Origin: Escherichia coli
GTDB lineage: Bacteria > Pseudomonadota > Gammaproteobacteria > Enterobacterales > Enterobacteriaceae
Length of the DNA: 64,000 bases
Assembly (NCBI RefSeq): GCF_024502345.1
Contig: NZ_JALDNN010000002.1
Strand: one strand, 5' to 3'
Positions 48,473-56,500 of this stretch are shown one piece after another; the stretch's first letter is position 1; each line of letters opens with the position of its first letter. The position numbers were made by a program.

Positions 48473-51400
48473 TGACCACTTCAAATTAATGGGCGGCGCT
48501 TTTTTGAAATGATTGCGCACTACCAAGCGCTGATTAACAGCCTAACCGGCGAGGCATTAACCAAACAGTCCAGCATTCCTTTATCAGACCGTGCACAGCA
48601 GATTCTTAACGCGCTCAATAGCTATAGGGCACGGCATCGAACGGGCGATCGTTATATCCGCATGCTGTTTGACTGTGCGCTGCTGTATTACTTCGATAAA
48701 TTTGGCAAAGAGCAACTATCAGAAGCGATCGAAAAGTTTTTCATCTGGGCCTATAGCTGCCGCTTAACCAGCCACGCTGTGTATATCGAAACCATGGATA
48801 ACCACGCCCGCAACAGCAAACTGTTTAAATTAATCCAGTCCGCCATTAGCCCAAAACAAGTACTGGCGCTGCCTTTAAAAACCCTCACCCCCGCTGATCT
48901 CAAGGCAAGTAAGATGGGCGATTTGGTTAAGCTATTCGAAGGAATGAAATACTATGTCGAATCCAAATAAGATAACGAGCTTTTCCATTAGGCAGCTGTT
49001 AGCAAATCACGCCTCCTATCAGATCCCTATGTATCAGCGTAACTATGCGTGGGAAAAAGGCGAAATTGATCAGCTGATTCAGGATGTTGTTGATTATCAA
49101 GTCCAAAAAAAGCCTTACTACATCGGCAGCTTAGTGGTGTATCCACGGGATAATCAGCTATTTGAAGTGATTGACGGCCAGCAACGCTTTACCACGCTCA
49201 CGCTAATTGCTTTATGTTTGAAGCACTTCAGCATGTTGGCTGAAAAAGAAGGGACAACGTCTGTTAATAAAGTTGACATGAGTTGGTATCAAACGCCTAA
49301 TTTATGCTTTGAAAGCCGCGCTAACTCAACCCTCACCCTTGAAAAAATAACAGCCTTTAGCGCCTCTACTGCTAAGCATTTGTCACTAGATCCAGCCGAT
49401 ATTAATCAGTGCAACAGCGCTATTTTAAATGGCTTTAACTTGGTGCAGCAGGCGTTATCTGAGCTTGCTAAACAGCATGACCTACATCAGTTTTGTGAGT
49501 ACTTATTTGATTGGGTAAAAATCACCCGCGTCCCCGTTCCCCACGACACTGATTTAACCCATTACTTTGAGGCGATGAATAATCGCGGGGAACAGCTAGA
49601 AAAACACGAAGTGCTAAAAGCCAGAATGCTCTCTGTGCTGCAAGATGCCAGCCACCAACACCCTGAGAATAAAAGCGCGCAGGAAGTGCTCAATAAAGTG
49701 TGGAATGCCTGCGCCAATATGGAGCGTTATGTGCAGTTTGGCTTTAACCCCATCGAGCGCCAGCAGATCTTTGGCAATGAGTGGCAAAAATTTACCGCTA
49801 ACAGCTTTACTGAGCTTCATCACGCGCTAATAGCCCCTGAAAACAGAGCAGCCAACACCACAGTCGACACTCATAGTGATGAGCCAGCCGCCAAATCACT
49901 GGCTGAAATGTTGAACACACCTTATACCGATAAACAGGCAGAAACAGATAAAAATCAACCATCGCCTGAACGCTTTAACAGCGTGATTAATTTTTCTAAC
50001 TTTTTATTGCAGGTCTTAAGGGTTTACAGCCAAAAAGACATTTCTTTGGACGATAAGCAGTTAATTGATCAGTTCGAAACGCATATTTTGCACGCAGACG
50101 AGGCAGCAGAAAAAGTTAAAGCGTTTGTGTTTGCCTTATTAAAATCCAAATACCTATTTGATCACTACGTGATAAAACGCGATGCGACGGCTCAGGACAA
50201 GTGGGGCATCAAGCAATTAAAACGCTATGAGCGCAATAGCCAAAGCTACGTCAATACCTTTGCCCAAAACGATCAGCCTGATACCACTCACTCGCAATTA
50301 AATCAGCGCATTGTTTTATTACTAAGCGCCTTTCATGTCTCTACGCCCACCATGAACTACAAGCACTGGTTAACCGGCGTTTTGCATATCCTGCATCAAC
50401 TGCACGCCAAGCAACTCGATGCAGACAACTATTTAAAGGCACTCGAAAAGCTCGCCAGAAGCTTTATCTATGGGCGTTATTTGGCTAAAACAGCGGCTGA
50501 TTATTACACACTGATTTTTGATAACCCGAAGGGCTATCAACCCTTAGCGGACACGTGTTTTTTACGGTGTCGCTTGCGCTATGGTTCGATTAAAAACAAC
50601 TTTGTATTTAACTATTTAGATTATTTGCTGTGGTGCACCACCCAAGATAAGGACCTGGTGTATCGTGAGTTTGAATTTAGTTTTAGAAGCTCGGTCGAGC
50701 ATTTCTACCCACAAGATCCCTACTCTGGCGAACCATTAGAGGATGGGCCTTTGCATAGTTTTGGTAACCTATGCCTAATTAGCCACAGCAAAAACTCTAA
50801 GCTCAGCAACTACCAACCCACGGCTAAAAAAGAGCACTTTCAAGCAGCCAGCACCCAAGGCAAAATCGACTCACTCAAGCTGTATGAAATGACTCGGGTT
50901 AAAGTATGGGATGCAGATGCTATCCACAAGCATGAAACCCAAATGCTGGGATTGTTTATTAAGGATTCTGAGGGAGAAAAATGAGTAACGTCGGCCAGCG
51001 TGAACGCATGACCCAACAGCGCATTGTTGAGCTGTTTCAAACGGATTTAGGCTACCGCTATTTAGGTAACTGGGAATACCGCGATAACAATAAAAACATA
51101 GAAGTTGAGCTACTAACGAGCTGGCTGAAAAAGCGCGGCATAAGCGAGGCGCTGATTAATCGCGTGATTCGTCAGCTAGACAGCGCAGCGGCGCTGGGCG
51201 AAGGTAAAAAGCTCTATTACGCCAACAAAGAGGTTTATCGCCTGCTGCGTTACGGCGTGAAAGATAAAGAAGGTGCTTGTAGATTCAATCTGTCAATGCA
51301 ACACCCCTTTCAATTATCTCTTTCGGTGTTTTGAACTTCAGTGTCTTTCTCGGTCTGTTGTTTAGCTGAGCAGCAACCAGATCTAGTTCATGTTGAGTAT

Positions 51401-54400: not shown

Positions 54401-56500
54401 GCGCCTTGTGTGAGCCGGTAAAAGCGCCACGCAACACGGAAGACTACATTTATTATTTTTGTGGTAAGTCAGGTCTGAACCAAGACGAGCTCACCGAGAA
54501 AGAAGCACTGCGTTTAACGCTTTATCAGAACGTTGCCAAACTGCTGCGTGCGTTCGCCAATATCGCCAATGAAATGCCTGATGCAGGCTATTCTGCGCAA
54601 GATGTAGACTCGATAAGAACAGAAGTGGCTCATTTTGAAAAAGTCCGTGACGAAGTAAAACTGGCCAGTGGCGATTTGGTAGAAATGAAACGCTTTGAGC
54701 CTGCGATGCGCCATTTGTTAGATATGTATATTCGTGCGGATGACAGCGAAGTACTGATGGATTTTGAAGAGCTGGGGCTTATTGAGCTCATTGTCGAAAA
54801 AGGCGCTGATGCCGTGGAGGCTTTGCCTGATAGTATTCGCAAGAATCAGGAAGCCATGGCCGAAACCATCGAAAATAACGTGCGTAAAACCATCGTTGAT
54901 GAAAACCCGGTTAACCCCAAGTATTACGAGCAAATGTCGGTGTTATTGGATGAGCTGATTGAGCTTCGTCGCCAAAAAGCGATTGAATATCAAGAGTATT
55001 TGGAAAAAATCCGCGAGCTGTCTCGTAAGGTTATACGTCCGGAGCAGACAGCGGCTAACTATCCGCCATCGATGGACTCTAATCCAAAACGCGCGTTTTA
55101 CGATAATTTTGGTCAAGATGAATTGCTGGCTACCAAAATAGATAGTGCCATTCGTTATACCAAAAAAGCGGATTGGGTCGGAGATCGCTTTAAGGAGCGA
55201 GAAATTGCCAATGCGGTGCGAGAAGAAACGACGGGGTATGAGGTGGATATTCAGGGTGTAATGGAATTGGCAAAAGCGCAAAAAGAGTACCATTGATGCC
55301 TAAGGTAGAAATTGGTTCTATTGCGATGCAGTTAAATCGTAAGGCAATTAAAAACCTTCATATCAGCGTGTTGCCACCTGATGGGCGTGTGCGTGTTTCT
55401 GCTCCTGAATCTATGACAGAAACCGCAATCCGTATGGCAGTGATCAGCCGCATTCCTTGGATCAAGAAACAGCAGAGTGTTTTTGCCAAACAACCTCGCC
55501 AATCTGATCGAGCAATGGTTAGCGGTGAATGTCATTACCTGTGGGGCAGGCGTTATCGTCTGAATCTTATCGAGCGTTCCGGAAAGCATGAAATCAAGCT
55601 AGGTCGTGGTCGATTGCATTTATATGTCAATCCCGCAACAACGCTTGAGAACAAGGCACTGGTACTGAACTCATATTATCGAGATGCACTTAAAACGCGA
55701 ATCGCTGAGTTATTGCCTGTTTGGGAAGATAAGATCGGCGTTAAAGCTGTAGATTGGGGAATTAAAAAGATGAAAACCAAGTGGGGCAGCTGCAATATTC
55801 AGGCAAAGCGCATTTGGCTAAATTTAGAGCTTGCTAAAAAGCCACCGGAGTGTTTGGAGTACATCCTAGTGCATGAATTGGTGCACTTGCTTGAGCGTAA
55901 TCACAATGAACGCTTCAAGGGGTATATGGACAAGCTACTTCCCGATTGGCGAGAGCGCAGAGATTTGTTGAAGCGGATGCCCTTGGCGCACAACGATTGG
56001 GTGTACTAGGAAAATTATGCAGAGTTTGCATGGTTAGCCTGATTATGTATGTGGCGCGTAATTTGAGATAAACTTGATAGTAAAAGCGGGAAATGGATTT
56101 CATTTCTCCGATATTTTGCTCAGGTGCTGTCGCTAAAAGTGTCAAGATTCTATCTTTACGCTTGGCGGCCAATACTCCCGCAGTACCTACCCAGAAAATA
56201 GCCAATATTGGGATCAACTTAACAGTTTTGGCTTTGTTTATTATAAAAACCAGCACTTTCAATTAGTTGAATGGTTTATTCGCTAGTTTATGTGAACTAC
56301 CATTTTGAGAGGGCTGAAAGTTGCTCGATTACTTAAAAATAACTTTACCTAAGGAAGGTGCGAATAAGCGGGGAAATTCTTCTCGGCTGACTCAGTCATT
56401 TCATTTCTTCATGTTTGAGCCGTTTTTTCTCCCGTAAATGCCTTGAATCAGCCTATTTAGACCGTTTCTTCGCCATTTAAGGCGTTATTCCCAGTTTTTA

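Follow-up and report, generated by a model that had tools for sequence, protein, structure and literature searches.

The closest described relative of the locus analyzed here is TgvAB, a phage defence system reported in 2024 from Vibrio pathogenicity island 2 (VPI-2) of Vibrio cholerae, in which a gene for a DUF262-only protein is followed by one for a DUF262+DUF1524 protein, both lying between hsdS and hsdR (PMC11411939; Gomez and Waters 2024, PMC11014532). Defence in V. cholerae needs both proteins, and it is abolished by mutation of the DGQQR motif in either TgvA or TgvB, or by mutation of the TgvB nuclease. TgvAB restricts T-even phages whose hydroxymethylcytosine carries glucose or arabinose, and escape occurs through loss of glucosylation. 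A nuclease mutant of the V. cholerae HsdR leaves TgvAB protection undiminished and tgvAB alone protects, so TgvAB and the type I system act independently in that host. Earlier work noted that GmrSD-like genes frequently lie within type I systems (bioRxiv 10.1101/2024.01.29.577857) and that, among the neighbours of GmrSD homologues, type I domains show the strongest enrichment (RloF; PMC4619093). We analyzed a stretch of 64,000 nucleotides of Escherichia coli DNA (contig NZ_JALDNN010000002.1, assembly GCF_024502345.1), hereafter called the window, which carries a tight run of genes including a GmrSD-like nuclease gene, an interrupted hsdR and a YgjP-like peptidase gene. Comparison with related loci makes it highly probable that this region is the 3' part, eroded by insertion sequences (ISs), of a known type I restriction-modification (RM) operon with an embedded TgvAB-type pair.

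Relatives were found by megablast of the region against plasmids; homologous loci are labelled L001, L002 and so on where they must be told apart. Intact relatives are ∼97% identical and lie on E. coli IncY plasmids and on chromosomes; the intact six-gene block is present in 12 of 5426 complete E. coli genomes, on the same two kinds of replicon. The E. coli plasmid NZ_CP148442.1 (pZ1323CEC0011-3; IncY, P1-like) has an IS-free version of the locus at 39965-51039, in the order helix-turn-helix (HTH) gene, hsdM (818 amino acids, aa), hsdS, two DUF262 genes (472 and 677 aa), hsdR (1030 aa) and a gene for a SprT/M48-type metalloprotease (237 aa); these genes are co-oriented, and each abuts or overlaps the next. 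Three V. cholerae loci (L003-L005) also carry the full gene order. HsdM and HsdR are clear type I subunits, the former with an unusual C-terminal extension of ∼350 residues. On this comparison, the intact operon would consist of hsdM (∼810 aa), hsdS, a tgvA-like gene (DUF262 + DUF7834), a tgvB-like gene, hsdR (1030 aa) and a ygjP-like gene, preceded in the relatives by a small HTH gene. The pair itself has been listed before: the E. coli proteins QEP81665.1/QEP81666.1 are given as TgvB/TgvA homologues (hit 334, Table S5 of PMC11411939). QEP81666.1 starts MSPDTSTHRLHEQVKSVYQ, as does the full-length relative of the remnant found in the window, and QEP81665.1, starting MSNPNKITSFSIRQLLADNASY, represents the L001-type allele of the 676-aa protein found in the window; a Salmonella sp. 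S13 entry shares the TgvA-like N-terminus. The operon arrangement is already known and catalogued, and the window locus is one more IS-eroded copy of it on a mosaic resistance plasmid, for which no new mechanism is needed.

The initial annotation had reported that the window contains neither hsdM nor hsdS. This was confirmed: when two intact relatives were compared with the complete window by BLAST, neither gene gave a match and no further piece of the intact locus was found. The window copy has therefore lost its promoter region, hsdM, hsdS and 311 codons of the tgvA-like gene. A type I RM system needs hsdM, hsdS and hsdR intact, and all three are present in the IS-free relatives; since the window copy lacks both the methyltransferase and the specificity subunit and its HsdR is split, it cannot have type I activity. 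The likely course is that an IS3-family element and an associated rearrangement deleted the promoter, hsdM, hsdS and the beginning of tgvA; IS30 broke hsdR at codon 99/100. Type I restriction and modification would both be abolished, and TgvB would be left without the partner that the V. cholerae system needs. Both systems are predicted from the sequence to be dead in this copy, in which tgvB and ygjP are the only intact reading frames left, with no recognisable promoter. A simple scan upstream of the tgvA remnant found no sigma-70-like promoter, with fewer sites than in shuffled sequence, which is weak evidence either way. The features of the locus are collected in Table 1.

Table 1. Features of the eroded operon and its bordering insertion sequences, in window coordinates
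Feature	Position	Strand	Basis
IS30 copy 1 (transposase ORF 46409-47560)	46347..47567	+	inverted-repeat pair with copy 2
IS3-family element, 3' fragment (orfB 47636-48475)	47569..48483	+	NCBIfam transpos_IS3, E 3.4e-90
tgvA-like 3' remnant, residues 312-472 of a 472-aa GmrSD_N + DUF7834 protein	48484..48970	+	protein alignment, Pfam
tgvB-like gene, intact, 676 aa (GmrSD_N/DUF262 + GmrSD_C/DUF1524)	48954..50984	+	Pfam
hsdR 5' segment, codons 1-99, ending in the CT duplication at 51276-51277	50981..51277	+	
IS30 copy 2, 1221 bp (transposase ORF 51285-52436), within hsdR	51278..52498	-	comparison with uninterrupted L001
hsdR 3' segment, second CT at 52499-52500, then codons 100-1030	52499..55296	+	
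ygjP-like (former DUF45) zinc metallopeptidase gene, 237 aa (238 aa from TTG 55293)	55296..56009	+	
Terminator-like hairpin after ygjP	56088..56108	+	

The run had been described as four overlapping genes on one strand, headed by an orphan open reading frame (ORF) of 153 aa (48509-48970, plus strand) of no known family. The ORFs are real and all lie on the plus strand, but this one begins at the internal Met320 of the 472-aa tgvA-like protein: all 153 residues align, at 99.3% identity, with positions 320-472 of both WP_000074284.1 and the L002 protein, and native tgvA-like sequence begins at residue 312, eight codons before the ATG. By its sequence the ORF is a gene fragment, the 3' third of a tgvA-like gene, and the locus holds three genes and a fragment. 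The full-length protein combines GmrSD_N (DUF262) with DUF7834 (Pfam); the last 161 codons left in the window have lost the DUF262 NTPase domain and keep only the second half of DUF7834. The breakpoint is the terminal ...CA of the IS3-family element at 48483, and homology to the IS-free loci starts at the next nucleotide, in agreement with the earlier view that upstream genes were lost to IS sequence. A seemingly coupled orphan ORF beside an IS end should be compared with IS-free relatives first.

The sequence that took the place of the operon's 5' half is a scrambled IS cluster (45448-48483), in which oppositely oriented IS3-family orfB fragments (45448-46260, minus strand, and the plus-strand fragment of Table 1) flank IS30 copy 1. 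This copy is 100% identical over 1222 bp to the IS30 of L002. It has no 2-bp target duplication (the flanking dinucleotides are GC and AC), which suggests recombination or deletion in place of a simple insertion.

The gene junctions were close to those first reported. The first overlap (17 bp) and the second (ATGA) stand, whereas the third, between hsdR and ygjP, also given as ATGA, reads TACCATTGATGCCT, i.e. TTGATG. The ATG at 55296 is the ygjP start annotated in the relatives and overlaps the hsdR TGA stop by 1 nt; an alternative TTG at 55293 would overlap it by 4 nt. Tight junctions are kept in distant homologous loci, usually as an 8-bp overlap of tgvA and tgvB and a 1-bp overlap of hsdR and ygjP, and this conservation of junction geometry is not a matter of chance. 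Downstream of the operon, homology to the IS-free locus stops at 56308, and an IS5 follows at 56498-57514.

That hsdR is cleanly interrupted by an IS30 with a duplicated CT, and that its frame is restored by removal of the element, was borne out in full. The two pieces appear as plus-strand ORFs at 50981-51334 (5') and 52519-55296 (3'), and the insertion point was set by comparison with the uninterrupted L001 sequence GGTGCTGGCC. The inserted element has the properties expected of IS30, namely a length of ∼1.2 kb, inverted repeats starting TGTAGATTCAAT, a 383-aa transposase and the CT duplication, and it is annotated as IS30 in relatives. Removal of the element and one CT gives an uninterrupted HsdR of 1030 aa that aligns without gaps to an intact homologue at 97.5% identity. 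The reconstructed protein scores 557 bits against TIGR00348 (cut-off 285) and 1718 bits against PADLOC REase_I PDLC03044; its 3' segment contains the PD-(D/E)xK region and the GSGKS and DECH helicase motifs, and the homologue in L003 shows HSDR_N, ResIII, SWI2_SNF2 and T1R_D3-like domains in Pfam.

The inactivation of hsdR had been called recent, which holds in one sense. The element within hsdR is identical to the other IS30 of the window and still has an unaltered CT duplication, which marks the insertion as evolutionarily young. However, the exact hsdR::IS30 allele is also found in plasmid NZ_CP061756.1, which retains hsdM, hsdS and the two DUF262 genes; over 5703 bp that take in the IS30, this plasmid and the window share 99.97% identity. 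Its hsdR is cut again further downstream by an IS26, and its allele is predicted to be r- m+. The allele is probably present in NZ_CP034659.1 as well: this record has the same 925-codon 3' piece of hsdR followed by ygjP in an alignment that begins inside the window's IS30, and the part from hsdM to the 5' end of hsdR sits elsewhere in the record. The insertion is older than the split of the window plasmid from NZ_CP061756.1, and probably older than that from NZ_CP034659.1. IS30 probably entered hsdR first, followed by the IS3-associated deletion in the window and the IS26 truncation in NZ_CP061756.1. An inversion of the segment between the two inverted IS30 copies was also considered and was rejected, as the sequence on either side of copy 2 runs collinear with the IS-free locus.

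The domain assignments of the initial annotation were upheld, with GmrSD_N and GmrSD_C found by Pfam in the 676-aa protein, a YgjP-like domain with HELVH in the peptidase, and HsdR recognized by TIGR00348 and PADLOC. The 676-aa protein is 96.6% identical to its L001 counterpart. It carries QR at residue 28 (QRNY), DGQQR at 74, FEAMN at 205 and a His-Me finger with H583 and N614, a spacing of 31 residues as in TgvB (H571/N602); the full-length tgvA-like protein has QRPY at 32, DGQQR at 76 and FDSQN at 183. The intact relatives thus hold what characterizes TgvAB: a DUF262-only gene followed by an adjacent, co-oriented DUF262+DUF1524 gene, with QR, DGQQR and FxxxN in both proteins (using the full-length TgvA-like one) and a His-Me finger in the second. 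The order hsdM-hsdS-A-B-hsdR is also that of the V. cholerae system. In BLASTP comparisons made with about the first 400 residues of each V. cholerae protein, VC1767 (TgvA) matched the 472-aa protein over residues 26-405 (E 4e-21) and VC1766 (TgvB) matched the 676-aa protein over residues 10-406 (24% identity, E 9e-24). The cross-pairs, TgvA with the TgvB-like protein and the converse, match in the DUF262 core only, which speaks for correct partner specificity.

Several points weigh against equating this operon with TgvAB and against a dead locus. Identity to the V. cholerae proteins is only 24-25% over ∼400 residues, with the nuclease domains outside the direct alignment, and the host type I system belongs to another family than that of VPI-2; for both reasons, the specificity for glucosylated hydroxymethylcytosine and the need for two proteins are extrapolated. 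The E. coli frame has an HsdM of 806-818 aa, an HsdR of 1030 aa and a YgjP-like gene that the paper on VPI-2 does not describe there, and the window copy has moreover lost the DUF262 domain of tgvA. Transcription that enters from the ends of the IS3 or IS30 could still allow tgvB and ygjP to be expressed. Single-chain type IV enzymes of the GmrSD kind (Eco94GmrSD, BrxU, SspE, HEC-06) share the DUF262-linker-DUF1524 architecture and the motifs with the 676-aa protein, but these act as single proteins, whereas this clade has an obligate-looking DUF262 + DUF7834 partner, and sequence similarity to them is limited to the N-terminal domain. The PADLOC matches of the protein (HEC-06, Orf5, SspE) likewise cover its N-terminal part only. 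No NCBIfam family matched either DUF262 protein, and a sequence search of the PDB with them returned weak matches only, to SspE and DUF262 chains and in the N-terminal domain only.

In the intact operon, as general type I biology would have it, HsdM2S would methylate a bipartite site, and HsdM2S together with HsdR would translocate along and then cut unmethylated incoming DNA. By analogy with the V. cholerae homologue, the embedded TgvA/TgvB pair would be an independent type IV restriction enzyme, the DUF262 NTPase domains of which would sense DNA with sugar-modified hydroxymethylcytosine. The TgvB nuclease would then cut the modified DNA and so catch T-even-type phages that evade type I restriction. 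The YgjP-like peptidase would be a constant partner of this HsdR family.

The wider distribution of the pair was assessed by a tgvA-like profile scan of species-representative genomes, which gave 434 confirmed loci, the best 80 of which, none of them from V. cholerae, were analyzed. A tgvB-like gene directly follows the tgvA-like gene in 76 of these 80. Full flanks were available for 38 loci: 17 pairs sit within the type I family found here, 3 within a different one, and the others stand alone, so that the pair is as often free-standing as embedded. Conversely, the same frame (HTH, hsdM of ∼810 aa, hsdS, a slot, hsdR of 1030 aa and ygjP of 237 aa; L088-L092) holds varied genes in the slot between hsdS and hsdR. 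In enteropathogenic E. coli E2348/69 (L088, NC_011601.1 1150268-1159908) the slot contains DarT-DarG, in strain C10 a DUF262 protein, an AAA ATPase and a hypothetical protein, in Ketobacter a 279-aa protein and Fic, in Nitrosomonas a Fic remnant, and in Sedimenticola TgvAB-like genes. The GmrSD-like pair is exchangeable cargo in a type I frame, comparable to RloF of Campylobacter jejuni, PrrC of EcoPrrI and DarTG of E. coli E2348/69, which are accessory defence genes placed between hsdS and hsdR in the same orientation. The cargo differs from those loci, and this frame ends with a YgjP-like gene overlapping hsdR.

Sequence divergence follows the same division. In L010, L011, L012, L015 and L020, compared with L001, HsdR is 89-98%, YgjP 61-96% and HsdM (where present) 81-94% identical, whereas HsdS and the TgvA-like and TgvB-like proteins are only ∼42-68% identical. 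This contrast fits recombinational exchange of the operon's middle: the type I frame (HTH-hsdM-hsdS-slot-hsdR-ygjP) carries interchangeable defence cargo, and hsdS and the cargo diverge far faster than the frame.

Some further observations concern these loci. In L033 (13437-17728), L042 (13584-16833), L038, L044 and L047, an additional 1.3-4.3 kb separates the tgvB-like gene from hsdR, which suggests that further embedded genes are stacked in the slot. In L001, L003-L005 and L089 the block is accompanied upstream by a tyrosine recombinase/integrase, proteins of ∼625-670 and ∼156 aa, and sometimes a Toprim/topoisomerase protein; this suggests that an integrative element delivers the operon to chromosomes and P1-like plasmids. 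The V. cholerae loci L003-L005 occupy a non-VPI-2 site adjoining auxiliary clusters of the type VI secretion system. L007 (CALJDJ010000001.1), binned as an uncultured Collinsella metagenome-assembled genome, encodes a TgvA-like protein 100% identical to that of E. coli; its hsdR match, which covers 92% of HsdR, begins ∼240 bp after the tgvB-like gene (532 bp to the first in-frame ATG). It is most likely a misbinned Enterobacteriaceae plasmid contig.

The initial annotation had proposed that the GmrSD-like nuclease, HsdR and the peptidase form one functionally coupled, non-canonical defence system. The translational coupling of the genes speaks for such a composite machine, as do the conservation of the junction geometry across distant taxa and the finding that the five-gene cluster of V. 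cholerae protected 10-100-fold better than tgvAB alone. However, the nuclease-dead HsdR gave wild-type protection in that system and tgvAB alone was sufficient; the authors ascribe the difference in protection to expression and stoichiometry. Roughly half of the tgvAB-like pairs whose flanks are complete stand alone, a few belong to loci of another type I family, and near-identical frames hold DarTG, Fic or ATPase cargo in the same slot. Since free-standing pairs are common and the slot takes unrelated cargo, a composite module is not supported, and we regard it as very unlikely. The search for IS-free loci that had been suggested as a check was run, and it recovered in essence the arrangement named there as speaking against the proposal: hsdM-hsdS-[pair]-hsdR-ygjP with an insert of the described TgvAB type, although the pair lies inside the operon and is not obviously separately transcribed.

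Slightly less probable still is a guard arrangement, in which the type I complex keeps the embedded proteins inactive until a phage anti-restriction protein inhibits it. It has a precedent in PrrC of EcoPrrI, the gene of which is embedded between hsdS and hsdR (reviewed in PMC12707154), and embedded systems as back-ups have been discussed by Payne et al. Yet TgvAB works without the type I genes, its escape by loss of glucosylation points to direct recognition of modified DNA, and the frequency of free-standing pairs argues against dependence on a type I partner. A reading of the 153-aa ORF as a small gene in its own right, such as one for a regulator or antitoxin, at the head of a four-gene operon has an open frame with an ATG and the 17-bp overlap in its favour but practically no chance of being right, given the collinearity with the end of the 472-aa protein, the eight native codons reaching upstream to the IS3 end, the half DUF7834 domain, the lack of an evident Shine-Dalgarno sequence, and the failure to see any free-standing 153-aa homologue in the IS-free loci.

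With the operon read as a type I frame carrying a TgvAB-type pair, the YgjP-like peptidase is the only part of the locus not explained by the published work found. The protein matches PF01863 over 203 of 207 profile positions (Pfam E 8.7e-62), with HELVH at residues 193-197, and H193, E194, H197 and E200/H203 are invariant in 29 homologues. The structure model of this predicted peptidase has a minigluzincin fold. PADLOC and NCBIfam gave no family for it, and a sequence search of the PDB yielded only a weak match, to projannalysin (E 0.004). Compared with minigluzincins and SprT/Wss1-type peptidases (selecase, abylysin, Spartan, Wss1; ArdC is more distant), it has an additional N-terminal beta-rich domain of ∼115 residues without a match, and it has no DNA-binding domain of the kind found in Spartan and ArdC.

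Of 31 loci with an HsdR of this family, 29 have the ygjP-like gene after hsdR; the exceptions are a truncated hsdR and a contig end. The peptidase, at least 73% identical in many proteobacteria, is far more conserved than the cargo. The window's own copy of the gene is intact but orphaned. As it follows hsdR whatever the slot contains, the peptidase belongs to the type I frame and not to the GmrSD pair. We tentatively suggest, while holding it rather doubtful, that the peptidase may be a dedicated proteolytic regulator of the type I enzyme or, alternatively, may destroy phage anti-restriction proteins. As a regulator it may, for example, clip or degrade HsdR stalled on host DNA, a built-in restriction alleviation by analogy with the action of Spartan and Wss1 on DNA-bound proteins. 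In the literature searched we found no published account tying YgjP/DUF45 to type I restriction, although it may be noted elsewhere.

The remainder of the window contains a gene for an MCR-10 family phosphoethanolamine transferase (colistin resistance) at 20050-21717 (plus strand; NCBIfam NF033862, 1314 bits, cut-off 1250), which makes the window part of an mcr-10-bearing mosaic plasmid region. Four IS26 copies are present (23997-24816, 27014-27833, 31231-32050 and 61849-62668), together with IS110-family transposases at 6851-7873 and 14481-15557. A betT-like transporter gene (3492-5495), a fimbrial usher gene (10250-12736), umuC (36772-38043) and a group II intron reverse transcriptase gene (38880-40367) were also found. 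Beyond the operon, an ompC-like porin gene (57740-58852, minus strand) lies between the IS5 and an IS2 (59050-60284), a block that is also present in NZ_CP034659.1.

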